Part shown: positions 45,701-61,525 of the stretch, piece after piece
How positions within the stretch are numbered: position 1 is the stretch's first letter
Layout of the letters: the number at the start of each line of letters is the position of its first letter
NCBI RefSeq assembly: GCF_963921235.1
Contig: NC_086097.1
Location: 49,416,001-49,480,000 of the forward strand
Direction: 5' to 3'
Length of the DNA stretch: 64,000 nt
Origin: Mobula hypostoma
Lineage: Eukaryota
Translations under genes and position numbers: made by a program
The notes under the pieces: model-generated
Databases searched by the model: none
What the model saw: the letters and a program-made list of their open reading frames with translations, nothing else
What the model was told of the DNA's origin: nothing

Positions 45701-46838
45701 GTGAATTTACATTCTTATAAAGGGAAAGCTCTATTATACACAGGGCTCTAGGGATTTGATACCTATTATTTAATATATTTTTCAATAACATTATAATACT
45801 TTTGAAATAACTGAAAATATGTTAGCACTTTAAAATATAACATTTTAGCACTACAGCAGTTTAATTGCTTCACTAAACCATGAGCTATAGTGCTATCGAT
45901 TTTCCCTTTCGTAAGGTGAGAAGTAATTAAAAATATTGCTTTTAATTCTGTATCACTGCAACTGGAGTGCCTTTGAGGTTCCAAAATGGATGCTGATTTT
46001 CTAGGTGTGTTTCATTCTCTTTACTTGGAGGAAGTCTCATTTAAATCACAGCCTGGAATACTGTGACCAGACTTAGTCACTTCACCTTCAGAAGGATTCT
46101 TTAAATTGGGAGGGAACATTGCAAAGCAATGTAAGAACTGTGCACGCTGGAAGTAACTCTTGGTGAGATGATGTCTGGGAAGAGAGTTCAAAATGTTTCA
46201 GATCTATGACCCTTATTCAGAAGACACCGCACCACCTTTCAAAAGCAGTATATTATTAGCAGAAAAGTTTTTGGTTTATAAAAGTTAAGTTACAAGGAGA
46301 GATTTCAGTAACAAGGAATGTAGTAAACCTGGAATTTAGAATGTTAAGGGATGATTGAAGGGAACTGATTAGGATGGAGGGAAGGAAATTATTTTCACTT
46401 TACCAGCATTAGGTCCTGGGGTGAAATTGGGAAGTATTTCTATATGTAGAGCATAGTAAAGTTTTTGAACTCTTTCATTAATAGCAGATAATACTAGGTA
46501 CAGGGTAACTGGTTAATTTTAAATCTGAGTTAAATTTTTAGTAACCATTGGAAATGAGTTACAATTTAGATGTGATCTCAACGAATTGTATAACAGGCTC
46601 CTGGAGCTAAATGCTCTCTCACTGTGGAGAATCCTTTTCTGAGATGGTCTAAACTATATTGATGCAGGCTAGACTTAAAATAGCCATTAGTGAACAGTTA
46701 ATCACAATTTGATTAAAAAGTTGATGCTTTTACTCTGAACTGATTTTTTGCAAATATTTTCCTACTTTTTGTTTTAAAACAGAAGTCTGCTCTGAAGATA
46801 GAAGCAATAAATCCAAAAAACCTTGTTCATTGCACTAA
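389..46838 (+). CDS. INF2: Inverted formin 2, spliced CDS of the CAAX isoform (21 coding exons, 1231 aa)
   Basis: Exons joined with consistent phases: 389-782, 3154-3269, 8065-8224, 9645-9678, 9928-10069, 12068-12209, 15411-16061, 17865-18010, 18163-18224, 18703-18805, 18897-18982, 20943-21043, 22092-22162, 25697-25804, 25894-25964, 26596-26716, 26801-26965, 33848-33950, 39805-39969, 43488-44186, 46783-46838; sum 3696 nt. Recognisable INF2 peptides: [64 protein letters not shown]. Confidence 0.96.
1765..1975 (+). mobile_element. CR1 LINE 3' end fragment
   Basis: ctgccagaggtagtggtagaag...gggctgaagggcctgtactgtgctgtactgttc matches the 3' ends of other CR1 copies in the window. Confidence 0.75.
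3154..3269 (+). CDS. INF2: INF2 exon 3 (DID), followed by a GC donor
   Basis: Acceptor tttgcag; (A)[38 protein letters not shown]; 116 nt; donor AAG|gcaagt. Confidence 0.94.
3545..4790 (-). mobile_element. Old Penelope-like element fragment (RT C-terminal region) with an internal CR1 scrap near 3930-4080
   Basis: Minus strand around 4320-4460 reads [31 protein letters not shown], like the PLE motif YLxYxSSHP...IPFSQFLRLRRICS; heavily decayed. Confidence 0.6.
4795..5190 (+). mobile_element. CR1 LINE fragment (ORF2 C-terminus)
   Basis: Decayed LVRxHLxYCVQFxSP motif and later aagaactagagggcatagacttaag typical of CR1. Confidence 0.8.
6515..7810 (-). mobile_element. Two antisense CR1 fragments (about 6515-6955 and 7085-7810)
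   Basis: Minus ORFs 6517..6714 ([13 protein letters not shown]) and 7283..7546 ([15 protein letters not shown]...[11 protein letters not shown]) resemble CR1 ORF2. Confidence 0.8.
8065..8224 (+). CDS. INF2: INF2 exon 4 (DID)
   Basis: Polypyrimidine tract + ttag; [25 protein letters not shown]...RTQLRNEFI; donor G|gtaaat; 160 nt. Confidence 0.96.
9645..9678 (+). CDS. INF2: INF2 exon 5 (34 nt)
   Basis: Acceptor tttttaag; (G)[10 protein letters not shown](R); donor AG|gtatgg; phase bridges exons 4 and 6. Confidence 0.93.
9928..10069 (+). CDS. INF2: INF2 exon 6 (FH3/dimerisation region)
   Basis: [25 protein letters not shown]...[12 protein letters not shown]; donor AAA|gtaagt; 142 nt. Confidence 0.94.
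12068..12209 (+). CDS. INF2: INF2 exon 7
   Basis: Acceptor ccctag; [22 protein letters not shown]...[17 protein letters not shown]; donor A|gtaagc; 142 nt. Confidence 0.95.
13270..14915 (+). mobile_element. Decayed CR1 LINE interrupted by a second retroposon
   Basis: Remnants of KGKxCLTx[16 protein letters not shown] and a CR1-type 3' end. Confidence 0.8.
13542..13922 (-). mobile_element. Short retroposon (RTE-associated SINE-like) inserted in CR1
   Basis: Flanked by imperfect direct repeats atgggtata/atggatata; the CR1 resumes after it; minus-strand (tga)n-like tail; carries the motif tttgccattgccttct also seen near 32882. Confidence 0.55.
15411..16061 (+). CDS. INF2: INF2 exon 8: linker, polyproline FH1 and start of FH2
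   Basis: Acceptor ttcttcacag; PPPLPGTGG repeats; [13 protein letters not shown] (FH2 lasso); donor G|gtactg; 651 nt, phase 1-1. Confidence 0.95.
15709..15925 (+). repeat. Coding tandem repeat of FH1 (about 4 units of (A/P)PPLPGT(V/G)G)
   Basis: Repeated cctcctctccc(t/g)ggcact(g)(g/t)tgg units separated by proline runs of varying length. Confidence 0.9.
17865..18010 (+). CDS. INF2: INF2 exon 9 (FH2)
   Basis: Acceptor ttccccag; (E)[30 protein letters not shown]...KKEPKE; donor GAG|gtaaat. Confidence 0.94.
18163..18224 (+). CDS. INF2: INF2 exon 10 (FH2)
   Basis: [20 protein letters not shown](C); ag and gtaagt boundaries; 62 nt. Confidence 0.96.
18703..18805 (+). CDS. INF2: INF2 exon 11 (FH2)
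   Basis: [34 protein letters not shown]; tttcag and gttagt boundaries. Confidence 0.95.
18897..18982 (+). CDS. INF2: INF2 exon 12 (FH2)
   Basis: [28 protein letters not shown](S); tgcag and gtgtgt boundaries. Confidence 0.95.
19165..19710 (-). mobile_element. Tc1/mariner DNA transposon relic
   Basis: Terminal-type motif gtacctaataaag(t/g)ggc(c/t)actg..tgta at both ends (also at about 51720-51762); the minus strand encodes [13 protein letters not shown], a Tc1 transposase N-terminal remnant. Confidence 0.7.
20943..21043 (+). CDS. INF2: INF2 exon 13 (FH2)
   Basis: [33 protein letters not shown]; cacag and gtaaat boundaries. Confidence 0.95.
22092..22162 (+). CDS. INF2: INF2 exon 14 (FH2)
   Basis: (D)[23 protein letters not shown], containing the formin GNxxN motif; atag and gtatgt boundaries. 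Confidence 0.95.
22235..23700 (+). mobile_element. Composite of decayed CR1 fragments
   Basis: Remnants of [29 protein letters not shown] and [13 protein letters not shown]. Confidence 0.8.
23702..24544 (-). mobile_element. hAT-Charlie (Charlie3/MER1/OC1-like) deletion derivative with transposase C-terminus, abutting the right end of a Blackjack-like MITE (23702-23794)
   Basis: TIR ggttggggaccactg ends 24544; minus-strand peptide [53 protein letters not shown] (hAT dimerisation region), continuing TKLRNRLDI in a shifted frame. Confidence 0.85.
25697..25804 (+). CDS. INF2: INF2 exon 15 (FH2)
   Basis: [36 protein letters not shown]; catcag and gtgatg boundaries. Confidence 0.96.
25894..25964 (+). 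CDS. INF2: INF2 exon 16 (FH2)
   Basis: [23 protein letters not shown](G); purine-rich acceptor gggaaag; donor gtaaga. Confidence 0.9.
26596..26716 (+). CDS. INF2: INF2 exon 17 (FH2)
   Basis: [19 protein letters not shown]...FDKPIQ; gacag and gtaagt boundaries. Confidence 0.93.
26801..26965 (+). CDS. INF2: INF2 exon 18 (end of FH2)
   Basis: [55 protein letters not shown]; tttcag and gtaatt boundaries. Confidence 0.95.
28110..28830. mobile_element. hAT-Charlie-type MITE nested in the Rex1-type LINE
   Basis: TIRs cagggtcgccaacc and ggttggggaccactg; imperfect 8-bp TSD gcctatac/gtgtatac; the LINE frame [15 protein letters not shown] is split at this point. Confidence 0.88.
28202..28748. mobile_element. 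hAT-Blackjack-like MITE nested inside the Charlie MITE
   Basis: Perfect 14-bp inverted repeat tagggttgccaact (28237) / agttggcaacccta (ends 28748); subterminal acgggaca repeats; 8-bp direct repeat tgttcaag at 28194-28201 and 28749-28756. Confidence 0.82.
31262..31548 (+). mobile_element. tRNA-derived SINE
   Basis: A-box-like gtagcgaagcagttag, B-box-like gagttcaatccc, CR1-type 3' end gaagggccagaatggccta...tgtatctctaaa and an (aaaat)n tail. Confidence 0.7.
32774..32900 (-). mobile_element. 127-bp 5'-truncated retroposon fragment (RTE-associated SINE-like)
   Basis: Flanking direct repeats aaattacaaaata (32761) / aaattacagaata (32901); CpG-rich; minus-strand pyrimidine tail. Confidence 0.6.
32930..33590 (-). 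mobile_element. Older Rex1/L2-group LINE 3' fragment
   Basis: Minus ORF 33043..33309 [17 protein letters not shown]...KRLQR...HHPGHDLF. Confidence 0.8.
33848..33950 (+). CDS. INF2: INF2 exon 19
   Basis: [34 protein letters not shown]; donor G|gtaagt; 103 nt. Confidence 0.94.
34741..35435 (-). mobile_element. Penelope-like element 3' fragment (GIY-YIG endonuclease remnant) inserted in CR1
   Basis: 10-bp TSD ggcagtggat at 34731-34740 and 35436-35445 splits the CR1 motif [17 protein letters not shown]; minus strand [18 protein letters not shown] and [21 protein letters not shown]. Confidence 0.88.
36630..37370 (+). mobile_element. Unclassified non-autonomous repeat inserted in CR1; its 3' end recurs at about 8700-8842
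   Basis: Starts caagatggtgcc; ends gaagaagaaattcagagttatatacttt...aataaatgaac, near-identical to 8787-8842; no ORF; no clear TSD. Confidence 0.6.
38850..39738 (+). mobile_element. Rex1/Babar-type LINE 3' fragment, same family as 27511-30465 but in the opposite orientation
   Basis: ORF 38934..39287 [34 protein letters not shown]...[15 protein letters not shown]; tail aataaagtcaattcaattcaa. Confidence 0.9.
39805..39969 (+). CDS. INF2: INF2 exon 20: WH2-like DAD
   Basis: (V)[31 protein letters not shown]...; ttttcag and G|gtaaga boundaries. Confidence 0.95.
40735..42095. mobile_element. Old CR1 fragments (+ about 40735-41650; - about 41660-42095)
   Basis: Decayed endonuclease motifs ([22 protein letters not shown]) on the plus strand; CR1 3' end on the minus strand. 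Confidence 0.65.
42735..43335 (+). mobile_element. CR1 LINE 3' fragment
   Basis: ORF 42821..43135 [10 protein letters not shown]...[18 protein letters not shown]. Confidence 0.88.
43488..44186 (+). CDS. INF2: INF2 exon 21: low-complexity S/T/E-rich tail ending in a basic patch
   Basis: Acceptor ttttacag; 699 nt open frame (inside ORF 43457..44242), phase 1-1; ends [13 protein letters not shown]|gtaatt. Confidence 0.9.
46783..46838 (+). CDS. INF2: INF2 exon 22: CAAX-isoform exon (57 nt, 46783-46839)
   Basis: Acceptor ttttaaaacag; (E)[17 protein letters not shown]; one nucleotide after TAA, then donor gtatgt. Parallels the human CAAX tail EVPPDSDDNKTKKLCVIQ as I recall it. Confidence 0.88.
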
Positions 46839-47583
46839 TGTATGTCTGAGTCTCACGTACACAACATTCCTAAACCACGGTATGTTTACTTGTTTTCTGC
46901 CAGAAATCTTTATTGAATGAAAAAGAATTCATTTTGTTGCATGTAAACATGATTATCCAGTCAGTAGCACCATTGCCAAGCTTCCAATTTGCTTAAAGAG
47001 ACTAGCCATGATCATTAATCCCAGTTGGCGTATAAGGTAAGCTTGAGTTTAGGAAGAACTATAACATGGGTGACTTTGCATCTGCTATCCAGTCGCTCCA
47101 GCGTTGTTTAATGCTGTTGCTATTTATTACAGTCAACTATAATGCATTTTCTGGAATGGCAAAAATTATCCCATTTGTTTTGTATCTTTGTCCAAGTTCA
47201 TTTGCAGCACCCTATCTCCTAACATCCCCACAAGTGTTTACTGTATGTGAGTAAATCACTTTATGGAAGTTCTTAACATTAGGACTCTTTCTATGGGCAT
47301 TCATGGTATTTTTACTTTTGAAGCTGTACAACAAGAGAATTATAATATGTCTGTTCATCTGATCTACGGTCACCAAAGTAATCCTTAGAACACTAGTCAT
47401 TCACTCCCATGTTGGTTCAAAATAAGAACATGGTATGTCACAGATCTACAAAGCAGGAAGCCCAGTTACTGGTTACTAAACAAGATTGGAAATTATGACT
47501 GATTTCTACTTCCACTTCCAGTCAATTGACTTATCCCCAGCAACACACACAATAGACAACACGTGCAATTGACTTATCCCCAG

Positions 47584-47880
47584 CAACACACACAAAATGC
47601 TGGAGGAACTCAGCGGGCCAGGCAGCATCTATGGAAAAGAGTAAACAGTCAATGTTTCGAGCTGACCGCTCATCAGGACTGGAAAAGTATTATTCTTGAC
47701 AAACACTAATCATCCCATAACAGTCGCTGATGGGCCAGTGTCCTCCCCTGGTCTGACAGAATTTGCTAATTAAAAGTCTTTGACCTTAAACATTAATTCT
47801 TCTTCTCTTTCTCCAGATGCTGCCTGAGCTGCTCAATGTTCCCAACACATTCAGTTTATTTTTCAGATTCCAGCATCTGC
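47584..47880. mobile_element. Two short Penelope-derived terminal fragments in opposite orientation (- 47584-47690; + about 47740-47880)
   Basis: caacacacacaaaatgctggaggaactcagc...catcaggactgg, and gatgctgcctgagctgctcaatgttcccaac...ttccagcatctgc. Confidence 0.75.
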
Positions 47881-48996
47881 TTTCTTTACATTTAATGCTA
47901 TTGTAACAACATGTCCCTGTGTATGTCAAACTTAATTAAGATTACCCTTATAGTGATGAGCTTCCACAAATGAACTTTTACCACCTTTAAACTCTACCAG
48001 TTGAGTTGCTGAAGTAATTTTTAATCACCTTATTCCTTATGTGAATCTCAGCCTGTTGGTTTTTTAAACTGCATGTTAGAAACTTATCACTGCTTAGAGT
48101 CAAATTTTCAAACTGCATTCTTGATACATGAGTTACTTACGGGTATGACAAAGTTAGAAAATGGTCTTGAAAGATTTAAAATCAGAACCAGAGTGATCAG
48201 GAACATTCCGTTTCAGCATCTGCCCAAAGTGGCAAATAAAGAACAGGCAAGATTGCTATAAATTCTGCAGTGATTTCTCTTATAAGAATGTAGCGGATGG
48301 AAAGGAGGGTGATCTTAGCAGGAATGTCTTCCACAATTAACCCCTACTATTTGTTGTTAATGTTCACACATCAACTGGGCACTAATGGAAGTAGATACCA
48401 ATGAGAGAAACTAAGTATTAAGAAGAGTGTACGTAGGAGAAAAAGGGAAGAAAATTAGTCCTTTCATTCTAGCATAAAAATTCCAAAAGTCACTCTGTGT
48501 GTTTTTTATTATCTGAATAATAAAACTTAGTGTCTGACATCTGTTTCAGAAGAATGGAAGAAGACATAACAAGAAGATGATGGAGGCAATCTGATCAAGA
48601 GTTATCACCAACTCAGAAATGCTTTTTCTCAAACAAAAAGAATGACATTGTGTACCTGGACTATTCTAAGTCTTCTAAGAGTCTTGCAAATGTGCAAAAT
48701 AGTTGAATGTACACTATAAAGAAACAATTGTTAGCTTTGTAAGGTTGATTGTCATCAAAACAACTTTTGAAAAAGTGGAAACATTTGAAATAGTAGAAAA
48801 TAAAATAAGACTAAGCTATGTTAGCTGATTTTATGCTCATTGGGAAACTTCTGCTAGCATCAAGAAATCGAGTACTAAATATTCAAATGATAACATGTTA
48901 TTGCTAGTACTTGAAACATTCTGACAATCGTCTTTTTCGGTTCTGGAATACTGCTCTAATCTGACACTGGAGCTAAGTGAGTGAGTCTCACTGAAA

Positions 48997-49136
48997 CAAC
49001 AGGAATTCTGCAGATGCTGGAAATTCAAGCAACACACATAAAAGTTAGTCCTGACGAAGGGTCTCGGCCTGAAACGTTGACTGCACCTCTTCCTAGAGAT
49101 GCTGCCTGGCCTGCTGCGTTCACCAGCAATTTTTAT
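48997..49136. mobile_element. 140-bp Penelope-derived insertion with an inverted terminal piece
   Basis: Perfect 16-bp TSD gtgagtctcactgaaa at 48981-48996 and 49137-49152; homologous to the other Penelope termini in the window. Confidence 0.92.
49046..49083 (+). ncRNA. Minimal type I hammerhead ribozyme motif (PLE type)
   Basis: tagtc-CTGACGA-a-gggt ctcg gcct-GAAA-CG-TT-gactg: stem I (t)agtc/gact(g), core CUGANGA and GAAA, stem II hairpin, palindromic ACGU in place of stem III, UH = UU. Activity is not shown. Confidence 0.75.
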
Positions 49137-49794
49137 GTGAGTCTCACTGAAAGCTAGTTTCTACAGTTTCATGGTGTTGGCCTTGAAGAATAGCTTGAAT
49201 TCTGGAAAATTTAGGGATGGTTTTAAGTCAAATGCTGATCTGTAACAGCATATTTTTCATGCCATGAAAATGGTTGGTGTAACTAAATATTAGCTCTATG
49301 TTATCTTGAACATAACATTTGGTGTAAGAATACTTTCAGCCATAAGTCATAATAATACTTAAATTAGGATCCTGAAAATTGCTTCTTATTTAATATGGCG
49401 TGTATTTGCATAAATTAAATCAAAATGCCCAGCATCCAGCTTTATGCAACAAATTTTAACAATCTGTATCTTTTGAATGAAAAATGTGTAATCTAGTATC
49501 AGCTTTATTATTTCATAATACTCATTCTGAATTTTATTTTCACAAAGAATTGGATTTTTGTATCATTTGAGCATTGTTACAATGAATTGGATTTTTAAAA
49601 AATCTTCTGAACAATAACTTGTTTTTCTACAGGAATAACCTTTATATTGTTCTTTATTTTAATAATATATTTTTGTCAGTCTTTCCTTTATGCCTTCAAT
49701 ACAGTAGTGCTTCGTTTCAAAGCGATAAAGGGTACCCTGACTTTATGCCACCTCTAATGTAGCAGCTGGCTGCTTACTGGAATATTTCAGGAGA

Positions 49795-49819
49795 AATAAA
49801 AAAATAAACAATTAATAAA
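49795..49819 (+). terminator. Cluster of polyadenylation signals
   Basis: AATAAA at 49795, 49803 and 49814, followed by T-rich sequence; an upstream AATAAA also lies at 48799. Confidence 0.55.
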
Positions 49820-50369
49820 GACATTTTTGTGAAATGTTTATTAAGTATTTTATAGCTTTTCACACTAGCCCATTTCTATATAATGTACCAGTAAAACTGA
49901 GGGAATGATTCAAGGACGTGCTCAAATTTCTCCTTGAAACAAAAAAAAGTGACATTCCCTGCTGAGAACCTCTGGCCATGACTTCTCACAGGAAAATTCA
50001 AAATGGTATTGGTAATGAGATCTTGTAAAGGAAGCATGCAGAAGCCCTGTGTAAACATCAGAAGGAGTGTACCTCCTCACAAATTACTCAACCACCCACC
50101 TAATCTATCACCTCCTGTGATTCTGTGAAACAATCTGGGATTCAAAACCTACAGAACTAGAGCAAGTCATGCTTAAATTTCTTTTATAACATTTTCACTG
50201 ATAATATCTAACACACTTCATAGAACATTACAAATACTAATATGACAAATCACTTAGCAGTTTTACTGCAAAGCTCAACTTGTTAGAAATGAGTATCAAT
50301 GCCATGGGTACAATTTTCCATCTATTAAAGTGAAAAGCACTCATTCTTAAACTATGTGTGTGGGCCTTT

Positions 50370-51872: not shown

Positions 51873-52936
51873 GCAACACATACAAAATGCTGGAGGAACT
51901 CAGCAAGCCAGGCAGCATCTATGGAAAAAAGTACAGTTGAAGTTTCGGGCTGAAACCCTTTAGCAGGACTGGATTAAAAAATACTATAGAGTAGATTTAA
52001 AAGGTGGGGGGAGGGGAGAGAGACAGACTAGGTGAAAGGTGAAACCTGGAGGGGGAGGGATGAAGTAAAGAGCTGGGAAGTTGATTGGTGAAAGAGACCC
52101 AAAGAGACCTCACCGATATATGTGAGGCTACACCGGGAGAACCGAACACAGTAAATGACCCCCAACAGACTCACAGGTGAAGTGTCACCTCACCTGGAAG
52201 GACTGTTTAGGGCCCTGAATGGTAATGAGGGAGGAGGTGTAGGGACAGGTGTAGCACTTGTTCTGCTCATACAGATAAGTGCCAGGAGGTAGATCAGTGG
52301 GGAGGGATGAATGAACAAGGGAGTTGCGGAGGGAGCGATCCCAGTGGAAAGTAGAAAGTGGGGGCGGGGGGGAGGGAAAGGTGTGTTTGGTAATGGGATC
52401 CTGTTGGAAGTGGCCTGTCCATCCATGGCCTCCTCCACTGTCCTAATGAGGCCACACTTAGGTCAGAGGAACACCACCTTACAATCCGTTTGGGCAGCCT
52501 CCAATTTGATGGCATGAACATTGATCTCTCAAACTTCCAGTAATGCCCCCCACCCCCATCTCCTTCACCATTTCCCATTCCCTTTTCCCTCTCTCACCTT
52601 ATCTCCTTGCCCACCCATCACCTCCCTCTGCTGCTCCTCCTCCCCCCTCTTTTTCCTTCATCCCTGGCCTTCTGTCTCTTTCACAATCAACTTCCCAGCT
52701 CTTTACTTCATCCCTCCCCCTTCAGGTTTCACCTATCACCTTGTGTTTCTCTCTCCTCTCCCTCCAACTTTTAAATCTACTCCTCAGCTTTTTTTTCACC
52801 AGTCCTGTCAAAGGGTCTCAGCTCGAAACATCAACTGTACATTTTTCCATAGATGCTGCCTGGCCTGCTGAGTTCCTCCAGCATTGTATGTGTGTTGTTC
52901 GGATTTCCAGCATCTGCAGATTGGATCTTGTTTGTA
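51873..52936. mobile_element. Penelope-like element with inverted arms and GIY-YIG endonuclease remnants
   Basis: Imperfect TSD aatagctttatgg (51860) / aatagctctgtgg (52937). Left arm (minus): [34 protein letters not shown]. Right arm (plus): EEHHLTIRLGSLQFDGMNIDLSNF plus terminal repeat. Confidence 0.88.
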
Positions 52937-54840: not shown

Positions 54841-55061
54841 AAAAACGCAAACACGAGGAAACCTGCAGATGCTGGAAATTCAAGCAACACACACAAAATG
54901 CTGGTGGAACGCAGAAGGCCAGGCAGCATCTATAGGAAGAGGTACAGTCGACGTTTCGGGCAGAGACCCTAGACCCGGGTCTCAACCCGAAACATTGACT
55001 ATACCTCTTCCTATAAATGCTGCCCGGCCTGCTGCGTTCCACCAGCATTTTGTGTGTGTTG
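54841..55061. mobile_element. 221-bp palindromic Penelope-derived insertion
   Basis: Perfect 14-bp TSD atagtcaagttctt at 54827-54840 and 55062-55075; inverted arms 54885-54969 and 54977-55061. Confidence 0.92.
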
Positions 55062-56099
55062 ATAGTCAAGTTCTTGACTGGCATGACTCTAGATTGTTCT
55101 GGTCCAGCTTGTTCTTCCACTGAGCGAGCACTGGAGGGCAGTACTGAGCGCACTGGAGTGCAGCTCTGAAAGGAGCCAGCCTCCAACCCAACACAATTCC
55201 AACACATCCACCACAGGCCCCTGGTCTCTCCCCTGGGCAGGTGCAACAGGCCACTGCATCTAAGGCAACCCTTTGGCCAAAGCCTTGTTTTCACCACAAC
55301 CAAGGCAACGCAACTCCCCTATTGTCAGTCTGACCAATGAACGGACTTGCAATATTCTACATTACCAATGTCCCAAAGGGTTTTGCAATCCCGATAAAAA
55401 CACTCAAGACAATCGCTCATTCTGTTTGTTGGATCACATGTGGTAAAGTTGAAATCTGTAAAATTTACTTATATATAGTTGTTCAAACATTTTTTAAAAA
55501 GGGTTAGAATAATTTATTTAATGTGAATATCATTTCATGTCGAGAAAAAAGGGATATGACTTGCAAATGTGTTTAGTTGAAAATTCTGAGAATCTGTGTG
55601 CAAGGTACTCTTTTACAGTATTGAGCACTGAATCTGCCATTGACTTGTAAGGGCTTGCATTCAATCTTCAGCACACAATTGATTGCTCATGCCTGCCAGA
55701 ATGCTGGGGGCAGGGGTTCGTTGGGGGGATGTGGAAGTGCACATGGTACTCATTCACCATTAAATTACTGATGCATGAACAGCACAACATACATATTTCA
55801 TTTGCCATATGCCTTTTTCAGGGGTACTACAAAATTTCAGGTGTGTAGGTGGACCATCTCCTTGCCAGATTGAGTTCAACCAAGCAACACCAAGCCTTTT
55901 CTTAATTGCCTAGAGCAGCAGCAGAGTGAGGCAGTTGATTGAGGTGAAGGTGAGGCTGAGAGCTGGTGGAGCAGTGCACACACTTCAGACACAGTGAGTG
56001 CTGGAGGCTGCAGAATCCAGTCAGCAGCAGGTAATCTTACTGTCACCACAATAACTCGCACCACCGCCAAGGGAAAAGAAAACGGACGTGCTTGGGAAT

Positions 56100-58927
56100 C
56101 TCCAAGTAGAAATTAGTGAGAATGTGTGAGTTACTTAAAGACAAGGCAGTAGAACTCAAAAGCTTCCTTCTGCTCGCAGGAGGGAATGTGGCTAAGAAAA
56201 CATGTTTGTTTCATGTATCCCTAATAAGTGACCATCTGGGAAGAGAGGAGCTGGGAAATCTGGAGGACAGTGGTATATCTGAACTTCTGCAGGTTAGAGA
56301 CAAGTTAAATGAGTCAGTGGTTGCTACAACTGCTTTGGCTGATAAAACAGAGGAAAAACAGTAAAATTGCAGTAACCCGCATGTCAATACAAACGGCAGC
56401 TCCTAATGCGATGAACTCGAGCAATCTACAGCGGTTAGTTCGGAGGGAAATTGTCCCACTAGCATGGCACAAAGACTTTAAAATATCTGGTCAGGATGGT
56501 GAGCCCAGTCAGAAAGACGAGTTGTTGTTTTCTAGACTTGTTCGCCAGATAAAACGCGCCCTAAATAGAGGCTGTCCCGAGGAGGAGATGATCGATGCAG
56601 TGATCAGAGCGATTATGCCTGGGCTCCAGTTGTGCAGGTATCTTGATGGTAAATCAGACTTGAATTTACCTACCCTTAGACAGATCCTTCATTCACATTA
56701 TCAGGAAAAAGGGACAACTGAATTGTATAAGCAGTTGACAGCAGAAGCCCAACACAGTGCAGAGATGCAACAAAGTCCCTTAATATGTATTCTTGACCTG
56801 AAGCAGTAAGTACTGTTTGCCTCACTGTTTGCCTGGTCTGAAATATGATCCAGCCTTGGTGCAGAGTATGTCTTTACATACTGTACTTGCCGGCTTACAA
56901 AGTGGTTCTATTCAAAAGGACCTCCAGCCAATCCTTTTAGATTCCAAAACCTCAGATGAGGTACTATTAAAAAAGATACACATTGCATGTGCAAATGAAG
57001 AAGAGAAAAAGAATAAACAGAAGCCAGCTGGGTCAGCTCGCACTGTCAATGTTAACTCTGCACAGTTAGAGGAACGTCCTGTTGAGTATGAATGGCAGAT
57101 GGAAAGGACCTAGGGTCACAGTTGGAAACACTTAGTGAAGACAATACACAGGTCAAGAAGCAACTTCAACAGCCCATACCTGTGCGTCAAAAAATGCTTT
57201 TCAGTTTCAAATAAGAAAACAGGAGATGAGAGCAACCCTCGCTCAGCTGCAGGACCTAGCATAGAGTTACCAGCAACCGCCAGAATGGGGTGCAAAGAGG
57301 CCTGAGAGGCCATGGGGCAAAACATCGTAGGGCCTGAACTCCAGAGAGAGCCAAGCATTGAACAAAGACATCGGAGGAAAAAGCAAACCCAGTTAATTGA
57401 ATCGGCTGTGCTCCAATCATACCCAGCCCCTCAACAACAAAACTATCCCCCATTTCAGCAGTATGCAATAGTATCATATGCATTGTCATCTGAAGCTCGG
57501 CAGCCATGCCAAGTAGCTCCACAGAATTATCCATTTTTACCACAACAGCATGGAGTTGCACAACAGTATCCAGTCCCAATACATCCATATCCCGGCCTGA
57601 TTCAGCAGCTTCGTTCACCATGAATTACAAAATGTTTCCACTGTCAGAGAGAGGGTGTGAAGAACTTTGCACCTACTGTTACAACTGTGGTAGCTGCAAG
57701 CACTACTTAGTAGGATGTAAAGTATGAGGAATAAGACAGTCATATGCCAGTGTTTTAGTTGTGCAGTGCCAAGTCAATCAACATTCATCTATAACTTCAC
57801 TGGGAGTCAGACAGTGCCTCATAGAATGCTACTTACAGGGATGTCAAAGTGAAGCGATATGGGACACAGGTTCACAGGTTTGCAATATAGACAAGCAGTG
57901 GAAAACTAGGCACTTAGCTGGAGTTAAACAGAAAGAAGTTTCAGAGGCAGTAGAGAGACCCGAGGCATAACAGCTGGTGGCAGCCAATGGTGCAAGCATA
58001 CCATACGTAGGATGGATTGGGATCACTTTCAAGATAGCTTCGCATGGTGCAAAAGAATTGATCATTCTGGTTCTGAAAGGCAGAGCTCCACTCCATCCCG
58101 TCACTGAATTCAACGTGATTGAACAGATTATAAAGGAGAGTGACAAACAAAGTCCTAAAGACAGAGAAGGAGACCTTGTATGAAACAGTGAGCTGCATTA
58201 TCTAGCCTGAAGAGAAGCAAAATCAAGGCGTTCATCAATCTGATTAGTATTGAGAATCCCTGTGAGCATTGAGCAAAGACAACAAAGAAGAGAGCATTTG
58301 AACCAGGTGAAACCACAGTAAGCTGAAGGCCTTGAGCTGTGTGAAACACTCGTAACACTCCAGAGGGGTGCACATCCATACATTGTTACTGATGTGTACA
58401 ACAAAACAGACCATGACATCGTGCTTGCTAGGAAGACAGTGCTCAGAACGTTGCAACCAGTTAAGTCCATGTTCCCTGTCACTGTGCATGAAGATGCCAT
58501 ATTTGAACCAGCTACTCGACACCAAATAGAAGATGATAAAGGTGAACTTGACTCTGATTTATGGGAATCCCCCTGTCGATGTGAACCGCCTAAATGTACA
58601 ACAGCAGCAGATCCTGAAGCAGATGCTACGAGAAGAATGTCACTCCTTTCAAAATCAGACAATGACATTGGATGTATCAAAGGTTTGCAGCTGAGCATCT
58701 CTCTCAAAGTTGACAAACTGGTTGCCCGCCCTTATATTTCAGTTTCAAAACCCTTCTACAACAGAATGAGTGGATCAAGATATTTAACTCGCCTTACAGC
58801 TTGCTAATCATGTGTGTCAGAAATAGAGATGGAAGCCTTCGTCTCTGTGTTGTCTATAGGGACTTGAATAGGAAAACTATTCCTGACCACCAGCTCATTC
58901 CACAAGTGCAAGACATTATGGACAGCA
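56100..58927 (+). mobile_element. Decayed Ty3/Gypsy LTR retrotransposon: gag, zinc knuckle, protease and start of RT
   Basis: Gag-like KDFKISGQ...AVIRAIMPGLQL; CYNCGSCKHYLVGC (CX2CX4HX4C) near 57677-57718; protease AIWDTGSQV near 57853; RT start DGSLRLCVVYRDLNRKTIPD near 58830; many stops and frameshifts. Confidence 0.88.
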
Positions 58928-59088
58928 TGTAACTCCAGATCAGGGTCTTCAAAAGAACCCTGAAAAGGAAAAAAAGACATATTAAAGATAGAAATAGAGC
59001 TATTTCCGAAGATGCAAGCAAAGGAATCGCCGCTAGATGTCAACATCCCAATCTCCACCCTGCAACTAGCAACCCCCTCCTCTTTCCC

Positions 59089-61525
59089 TTCTCAGTGGAG
59101 TAAAGGAAATTATAGTGGCATGAGAGAGGATCTGGCCAAAGTTGACTGGAAGGGGACACTGGCAGGAAGGACGGCAGAGCAGCAGTGGCTGGAGTTTATG
59201 CGAGAAGTGAGGAAGGTGTACGACAGGTATATTCGAAAAAAGAAGAAATTTTCGAATGGAAAAAGGATGCAACCGTGGTTGACAAGAGAAGTCAAAGCCA
59301 AAGTTAAAGCAAAGGAGAGGGCATACAAGGAAGCAAAAATTAGTGAGAAGACAGAGGATTGGGAAGTTTTTAAAAGCTTACTAAAGGAAACTAAGAAGGT
59401 CATTAAGAGGGAAAAGATTAACTATGAACGGAAGCTAGCAAATAATATCAAAGAGGATACTAAAAGCTTTTTCGAGTATATAAAGAGTAAAAGACACGTG
59501 AGAGTAGATATAGGACAGATAGAAAATGATGCTGGAGAAATTGTAACGGGAGATAAGGAGATGGCGGAGGAACTGAACAAGTATTTTGCATCAGTCTTCA
59601 CTGAGGAAGACATCAGCAGTATACCGGACACTCAAGGGTGGCAGGGAAGAGAAGTGTGCGCAGTCACAATTACGACAGAGAAAGTACTCAGGAAGCTGAA
59701 TAGTCTAAAGGTAGATAAATCTCCCAGACCAGATGGAATGCACCCTCATGTTCTGAAGGAAGTAGCTGTGGAGATTGCGGAGGCATTAGCGATGATCTTT
59801 CAAAAGTCGATAGATTCTGGCATGGTTCCGGAGGACTGGAAGATTGCAAATGTCACTCCGCTATTTAAGAAGGGGGCAAGGAAGCAAAAAGGAATTTATA
59901 GACCTGTTAGCTTTACATCAGTGGTTGGGACGTTGTTGCAGTCGATTGTCAAGGATGAGGTTACATAGTACCTGGAGGCATATGACAAGATAGGCAGAAC
60001 TCAGCATGGATTCCTTAAAGGAAAATCCTGCCTAACAAACCTATTACTATTTTTTGAGGAAATTACAAATAGGCTAGACAAGGGAGATGCAGTGGATGTT
60101 GTATATTTGGATTTTCAGAAGGCCTTTGACAAGGTGCCACACATGAGGCTACTTAGCAAGATAAGAGCCCATGGAATTACGGGAAAGTTACATACGTGGA
60201 TAGAGCGTTGGCTGATTGGCAGGAAACAGAGAGTGGGAATAAAGGGATCCTATTCTGGTTGGCTGCCGGTTACCAGTGATCACAACACGCTGGAGGAACT
60301 CAGCAGGTCGGGCAGCATCCGTGGAAAAGATCAGTCAACGTTTCGGGCCGGAACCCTTTGTCAGGAACCCTTGAGTCCTGACGAAGGGTTCCAGCCCAAA
60401 ACGTCGACCGATCTTTTCCACGGATGCTGCCTGACCTGCTGAGTTCCTCCAGCGTGTTGTGAGTGTTTCTTTGACCCCAGCATCTGCAGATTATTTTGTG
60501 GTTACCAGTGGTGTTCCATAGGGGTCCGTGTTGGGGCCGCTTCTTTTTACATTGTACATCAACGATTTGGATTATGGAATAGATGGCTTTGTGGCTAAGT
60601 TTGCTGATGATACGAAGATAGGTGGAGGGGCCGGTAGTGCTGAGGAAACAGAGATTCTGCAGAGAGACTTGGATAGATTGGAAGAATGGGCAAAGAAGTG
60701 GCAAATGAAATACAATGTTGGAAAGTGTATGGTTATGCACTTTGGCAGAAGAAATAAACAGGCAGACTGTTTTTTAAATGGGGAGAGAATTCAAATTCTG
60801 AGATGCAACGGGACTTGGGAGTCCTCGTACAGGATACCCTTAAAGTTAACCTCCAGGTTGAGTCGGTGGTGAAGAAGGCGAATGCAATGTTGGCATTCAT
60901 TTCTAGAGGAATAGAGTATAGGAGAGATGTGATGTTGAGGCTCTATAAGGCGCTGGTGAGACCTCACTTGGAGTACTGTTGGCAGTTTTGGTCTCCCTTA
61001 TTTAAGAAAGGATGTGCTGACGTTGGAGAGGGTACAGAGAAGATTCACTAAAATGATTCCGGGAATGAGAGGGTTAACATATGAGGAACGTTTGTCCGCT
61101 CTTGGACTGTATTCCTTGGAGTTTAAAAGAATGAGGGGAGACCTCATAGAAACATTTCGAATGTTGAAAGGCATGGACAGAGTGGATGTGGCAAAGTTGT
61201 TTCCCATGATGGGGGAGTCTAGTACGAGAAGGCATGACTTAAGAATTCAAGGGCGGCCATTCAGAACAGAGATGCGAAGAAATTTTTTTAGCCAGAGGGT
61301 GGTGAATCTATGGAATTAGTTGCCACGGGTGGCAGTGGAAGCCAAGTCATTGGGTGTATTTAAGGCAGAGATTGATGGGTATCTGAGTAGCCAGGGCATC
61401 AAAGGTTATGGTGAGAAGGCAGGGGAGTGCGACTAAATGGGAGAATGGATCAGCTCATGATAAAATGGCAGAGCAGACTCGATGGGGCAAATGGCCGACT
61501 TCTGCTCCTTTGTCTTATGGTCTTT
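59089..61525 (+). mobile_element. Relatively young 5'-truncated CR1 LINE (ORF2)
   Basis: ORF 59012..59968 (about 290 aa CR1-derived) followed by QHGFLKGKSCLTNLL, DVVYLDFQKAFDKVPH, KFADDTK, VRPHLEYC; few stops; tail tgtcttatggtctt. Confidence 0.95.
60279..60499. mobile_element. 221-bp palindromic Penelope-derived insertion inside the young CR1
   Basis: Perfect 11-bp TSD ggttaccagtg at 60268-60278 and 60500-60510 splits CR1 LPVTS|GVP; 87-bp inverted arms 60280-60366 and 60376-60462. Confidence 0.93.

Follow-up and report, generated by a model that had tools for sequence, protein, structure and literature searches.

A 140-bp insertion in the 3'UTR of INF2 of Mobula hypostoma, found within a 64,000-nt stretch of contig NC_086097.1 (here called the window), carries a minimal hammerhead motif on the sense strand of the gene. 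This motif is a hammerhead of a known kind and very probably a near-neutral passenger, for which little or no cleavage is predicted. What is new is not the kind of hammerhead but its exonic position, accompanied by empty-site controls in relatives.

The minimal type-I hammerhead occupies positions 49046..49083 of the plus strand, and its boxes, stem I, stem II and palindrome, as listed in the preliminary description, are all present. Stem I is formed by 49046-49050 with 49079-49083 (four Watson-Crick pairs plus U-G), followed by the 5' core box CUGACGA (49051-49057), an unpaired A at 49058 and a stem II of four pairs (49059-49062 with 49067-49070) closed by G-U. The 3' core box GAAA (49071-49074) is succeeded by CG (49075-49076) and by U16.1-U17 (49077-49078), the predicted scissile bond lying after 49078 in a GUU triplet as against the GUC of the family. 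The CUGANGA, GAAA and UH boxes and both stems are found together and all invariant core bases are kept. The lack of stem III, the palindromic 15.2-16.2 positions (CG 49075-49076) within an intact ACGU palindrome and the unpaired base between 9 and 10.1 (A49058) bear out the assignment to the minimal, dimer-type hammerheads. A descriptor of boxes and stems, written after the motif had been seen, matched once in the 64-kb window versus 0.005 times per 64-kb Markov surrogate (200 surrogates). Rfam at gathering score gave no match in the whole window, and the folding energy at the motif was no better than that of shuffles (z -0.76). At E values up to 10, Rfam returned only UnaL2 and MIR444 around the insert, both at chance level. 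An alternative stem II register with A-U closing was less stable (-5.6 versus -7.0 kcal/mol) and was not preferred.

Metazoan minimal hammerheads of Penelope-like elements (PLEs), as described by Cervera and De la Pena 2014 (PMC4209133), share with our motif the type I arrangement with a short stem I, the extra unpaired base between 9 and 10.1, the palindromic 15.2-16.2 without loop 3 and the occurrence mostly as scattered single motifs from truncated elements. They differ in that the young subfamily found here has G-U instead of G10.1-C11.1 and a stem II of only four pairs, and in that position 17 of the INF2 copy is U and its location within a host 3'UTR is verified. The G-U wobble at the usual G10.1-C11.1 pair is present in the INF2 copy and in a subfamily of 36,060 exact copies; other copies of the family have G-C.

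The identity of the host gene as INF2 was confirmed by exons on the plus strand matching Drf_GBD, Drf_FH3, FH1, FH2 and WH2 in order (hits in 7 of 9 frames scanned), together with a first coding exon that matches human inverted formin-2 at E 1e-55. For its 3' end, contigs from four runs of four studies (organisms A, B, G and C; 4 of the 18 runs listed) were evaluated. GT..AG joints 44186 -> 46783 and 46879 -> 48550 were found in 4/4 runs, and since this splicing extends across introns of 2.6 kb and 1.7 kb, the runs, having no RNA label on record, appear to derive from mRNA. The spliced contigs define a terminal exon at 48550..49821 (plus strand), representing the 3'UTR of the CAAX isoform and hosting the insertion. 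They thereby substantiate, in all four runs, both the proposed acceptor at 48550 and the position of the motif upstream of poly(A) signals. AATAAA hexamers in this exon are located at 48799 (proximal) and at 49795, 49803 and 49814 (distal cluster). The proximal one had been considered as possibly excluding the motif from the transcript, which did not hold, as the contigs read past it in every run; the last contigs end at 49821, 49803, 49799 and 49793, near the distal cluster. Because the contigs span 48799 and stop at this cluster, at least some of the INF2 transcripts contain the insert in their 3'UTR.

The penultimate exon (46783..46879, plus strand) encodes a CAAX-type end ...PCSLH with the stop at 46836-46838, and thus ends the protein like the human CAAX exon, which is described as preceding the non-CAAX exon (PMC3237625). 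Its KKPCSLH-stop ends 41 nt before the last junction. If this exon were skipped, the last exon would supply a short EEWKKT-stop terminus resembling the human non-CAAX form; a joint of this type was absent among the contig rows shown. Over the hammerhead, the contigs leave a gap (49023-49109 in run X1, 49020-49093 in run X5), as expected for a repeat of such copy number, and they are uninformative on cleavage because none of them bridges it. Contig depths before and after the insert (89/80 in X1, 184/83 in X5) cannot rank parts of the gene and were left unused.

Dissection of the insertion revealed identical 16-mers at 48981..48996 and 49137..49152, which lie 156 apart and flank the 140 bp. The perfect 16-bp target site duplication (TSD) stated in the preliminary description was confirmed, a single copy being present at the empty site of a relative. 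The view of the 140 bp as one colinear unit had to be abandoned, as it consists of two arms in opposite orientation. Compared with the 3' end of the near-full-length copy L034 as reference, arm 1 (48994..49046, minus strand, antisense to INF2) represents the 3'-most 53 nt of the element including its optional tail and is identical in 53/53 positions. Arm 2 (49043..49139, plus strand, sense to INF2) is an inverted, 5'-truncated end without tail (93/97 identical), beginning 4 bases before stem I and retaining some 55 nt of the element downstream of the hammerhead. The arms overlap by 4 bases at their junction and have 3 bases in common with each TSD, so the last 3 bases of the left TSD also fit the tail end of the element. 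The inversion of arm 2 is the only reason for the hammerhead being sense to INF2. A layout in which one copy is truncated and inverted and only one end bears a tail has been described for PLEs (PMC8557442), and the INF2 insert displays it in full, including TSD and empty site. Among 19 look-alike insertions, which were picked by similarity to the INF2 insert and are hence biased to the same layout, 12 are flanked by repeats of 13-18 bp, and all 18 that have a core carry C17.

Sequences 85-98% identical to the insert recur at many sites of the 3.48-Gb genome. A degraded endonuclease-linker frame in the window (52188-52442) served as lead to 150 listed relatives, six of which were fetched on account of their long open frames. 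All six loci contain a 766-873 aa open frame with RT motifs (YIDD and DKG, read by eye) and, 288-299 bp behind it, the hammerhead-bearing end, which is 89-96% identical to that in INF2; three loci have the complete tail and one has a part of it. This recurrent arrangement bears out the suggested Penelope origin of the hammerhead. The two ORFs scanned matched RVT_1 at E 4e-5 and 9e-6, below the Pfam curated cut-off, and gave no GIY-YIG endonuclease match; by eye, a CX4CxxC linker and VIY...YIG motifs were each recognized in 5/6 ORFs. Judged by sequence, the insert is the truncated 3' end of an autonomous, endonuclease-containing (EN+) Penelope-like element. An L1-type or SINE origin was rejected, since the insert lacks a poly(A) tail and its end aligns with that of RT-GIY-YIG elements.

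The element is probably of the Neptune type, which is defined by a CX2-5CxxC linker ahead of a C-terminal GIY-YIG endonuclease (PMC8557442); since this class assignment is based on the linker and not on a tree, Nematis with the same linker is set aside by host range only. Features in common with the Neptune clade (PMC8557442) are a single ORF with RT, CX4CxxC linker and C-terminal GIY-YIG-type motifs, as well as the inverted truncated arm and the optional tail. With the Anolis Poseidon element PAc (PMC11167929) it shares two 3' end points bounding the tail, presumably the priming of both strands, and a hammerhead shortly upstream. PAc belongs to another clade and its ORF starts inside the hammerhead, whereas the young form described here has no ATG there. 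One further locus (L038:1904-5549) contains two complete terminal repeats in the same orientation, each with tail, around a 766-aa frame, a partial tandem layout that places two hammerheads on the same transcript.

Further remnants of the element are scattered over the window. The last INF2 intron contains a minus-strand element end (47523-47682) in which a segment of 43 bp is duplicated at the 3' end. Just past INF2, an older two-armed Penelope insertion (51880-52935) consists of a minus-strand arm, which includes the above-mentioned linker remnant at 52188-52442, and a plus-strand arm with a pyrimidine-rich 3' region, a decayed hammerhead and a tail. At 54850-55065 and 60285-60470, this element end recurs as inverted pairs in head-to-head arrangement whose cores are dead or truncated, the latter pair interrupting a LINE-like RT fragment. 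Downstream of INF2, positions 56100-58960 hold gag/protease/RT-like fragments seen by eye, which we take to be those of an LTR retroelement. The INF2 motif had been singled out as the only intact copy. This is correct within the window (at least 15 nhmmer matches listed, 11 stretches read), because the others are defective in the 5' box, the palindrome or one of the core bases, and incorrect for the genome, where 54,937 GUC cores were counted.

These 54,937 matches of a degenerate intact core with GUC correspond to about one per 63 kb, and the exact 34-mer in its GUC form occurs 36,060 times; reversed-pattern controls for the motif counts gave 0. Both numbers exceed the 4,000-9,000 copies reported for coelacanth and Xenopus (PMC4209133). 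Against 36,060 exact copies, the intact core that had appeared noteworthy loses its significance and reflects youth. The INF2 insert shows two differences from the majority form of the family in about 150 aligned bases, and its core is intact because the insert is young. One of the two differences is C17U, a CpG decay at the cleavage triplet. In the genome, 1,652 exact 34-mers have this C17U form, compared with 1,907 for G1.1A, the opposite-strand decay of the same CpG, and 1,565 for G8A, a CpG change that kills catalysis, each amounting to 4.3-5.3% of the GUC majority form. The similarity of these counts indicates that lethal and mild CpG changes accumulate alike. On this sequence evidence, CpG decay of the motif after insertion proceeds regardless of catalytic cost, a genome-wide pattern that has no direct bearing on selection at the INF2 locus. 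Assuming that 3'UTRs make up roughly 1% of the genome, UTRs should contain a few hundred sense copies in the absence of selection. The youngest subfamily, comprising the 36,060 exact copies, has a stem II closed by G-U and C at position 7. With this C, G5-G8 can pair perfectly with C15.2-C17, which builds an inactive hairpin into the most successful form.

The comparison across related species, as proposed in the preliminary description, resolved into two carriers and two organisms with an empty site. On the pieces listed, organism A is identical to the window (0 differences), and organism B shows 17 differences in about 1,180 bases; in both, contigs enter the element from both sides, with the core bases in B lying outside contig coverage. 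Organism G, with 26 differences over about 1,095 bases, and organism C both lack the insertion. A contig of organism G (run X15) jumps from 48980 to 49137, representing a clean empty site with one TSD copy. Relatives lacking the insert are only about 2.4% diverged in the INF2 UTR. As the long UTR is present with and without the insert, it predates a recent insertion common to two close species, and the distribution over the four organisms implies that the insertion has been tolerated since before the A/B split. Two indels were additionally recorded in this UTR: a 15-base piece at 48791 is present in G and C and missing in A and B, and a 5-base piece at 48838, present in B and C and missing in A and G, misfits a simple tree. 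The expression of the long UTR in species both with and without the insert also argues against a non-catalytic effect, in which the repeat arms would pair with repeat-bearing or small RNAs or shift the use of proximal and distal poly(A) sites, and which we regard as quite unlikely.

The same distribution bears on whether the motif could be a domesticated cis ribozyme tuning INF2 output in the manner of the rodent Clec2 3'UTR hammerhead. Its presence in two species and its location downstream of the stop codon and ahead of the poly(A) signal, which it shares with the discontinuous Clec2 hammerhead (PMC6765202, PMC6155905), speak for this reading. The Clec2 hammerhead is, however, described as a type III ribozyme with a full helix set, shared across mammals and shown to cleave and to lower expression (PMC6765202, PMC6155905), whereas the INF2 motif is a young type-I minimal monomer in which the three-helix cis fold is missing, and which is present in 2/4 organisms compared and not conserved at the locus across them. 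Considering furthermore the lack of stem III and of a partner, the decay at the cleavage triplet, its absence from relatives so little diverged in the UTR and the fact that no compensatory change was seen, domestication is extremely unlikely. The motif also differs from non-LTR retrozymes, which are likewise PLE-derived and hammerhead-bearing (10.64898/2026.07.22.740005), in being part of a one-off inverted insertion with TSD and not of a tandem array; no tandem units with hammerheads were found at the INF2 site.

Prediction of the RNA structure points in the direction of a passenger as well. The predicted main fold is a long, inactive hairpin pairing the catalytic core with CGUU. In three sequence contexts, the largest being the whole exon, the open-core fold (-7.0 kcal/mol) reaches a predicted weight of about 0.5-0.7%, and an active dimer formed by strand swapping is predicted to lie 7.9-10.5 kcal/mol above two monomers; since the tertiary core is omitted, these fold energies are only supporting, and they disfavor the GUC form of the family as well without singling out the INF2 copy. 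Published experiments are in line with poor activity of lone motifs. The single minimal hammerhead of Schistosoma is reported to show no cleavage and its dimers low cleavage (PMC4209133), and 8/9 Xenopus dimers are reported to have given no product (10.64898/2026.07.22.740005). GUC and GUA are described as the fastest triplets, GUU being allowed under the NUH rule (PMC3138052). Weak activity, as anticipated in the preliminary description, stands as an expectation in view of the U17 triplet, the lone monomer and the published monomers remaining uncut when unaided. Removal of the poly(A) tail by cleavage, likewise put forward there, did not gain support, the cleavage triplet itself being altered and the INF2 pre-mRNA span containing one sense core only, with no second core with stems found.

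Cleavage after 49078 with loss of the poly(A) tail could still occur conditionally in trans, assisted by the protein of the element bound to the downstream arm or by strand swapping with one of the many RNAs bearing this hammerhead. An Anolis PLE hammerhead was reported to cleave in vitro only with the protein of the element (PMC11167929), the genome investigated here holds long RT-EN open frames, and every RNA-like run contains thousands of family contigs stacked on the element. The sense arm moreover still has its roughly 55 nt of the element downstream of the motif, and the ACGU palindrome is intact. Nevertheless, the Anolis study is reported to have found in vivo no RNA-seq reads that begin or terminate at the cleavage position (PMC11167929), the tail is missing from the sense arm, U17 is weaker than C17 with GUC and GUA being the best triplets (PMC3138052), and the intermolecular active dimer is predicted to be unfavorable. 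Taken together, we consider cutting in trans unlikely. In Xenopus, hammerhead repeats are described as depleted from exons, the rare exonic copies tending to 3'UTRs (10.64898/2026.07.22.740005); by analogy, exonic copies could perhaps be other than neutral.

For the origin of the near-neutral passenger, we propose that an active Penelope-like retroelement with RT, Cys-rich linker and GIY-YIG endonuclease nicked the pre-existing INF2 3'UTR, the staggered nicks being about 16 bp apart. The element RNA would have been copied from both nicks, starting at the two usual 3' start points with and without tail. We infer this priming from both nicks by analogy with the purified Anolis PLE protein, which is described as nicking and extending both strands, with two start sites bounding the tail (PMC11167929). 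Both copies would have stopped early and joined via the 4-base overlap, yielding the two-armed insert of 140 bp, in which the minimal hammerhead of the inverted arm would have become sense to INF2 by an accident of geometry. Formation of stem III would need a second copy or the protein of the element. Within the INF2 mRNA, the lone motif would exist mostly as a hairpin with paired core, and it later lost C17 by CpG decay. We infer from these considerations that the insert is near-neutral and that cleavage is absent.

A report on this family in sharks or rays, or on a PLE hammerhead cutting host mRNA, was not found in the open-access literature. In the ordinary case, the INF2 insert demonstrates that a hammerhead of intact appearance in the 3'UTR of a vertebrate gene may be nothing more than a young retroelement fragment, and provides a very clean record of the two-arm, two-start-point insertion geometry of PLEs. 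If cutting were to occur, it would represent a rare transposon ribozyme acting on host mRNA and would offer a way to test the in vivo function of minimal hammerheads. A more far-reaching and quite improbable scenario is that expression of the element, through its protein or a pool of homologous RNAs as dimer partners, switches on in trans the tens of thousands of identical half-ribozymes which it has seeded, some of them in host 3'UTRs like that of INF2, and which would then cut the poly(A) ends off host mRNAs. Should this be true, INF2, with sister species having and lacking the insert, would be a ready natural test.
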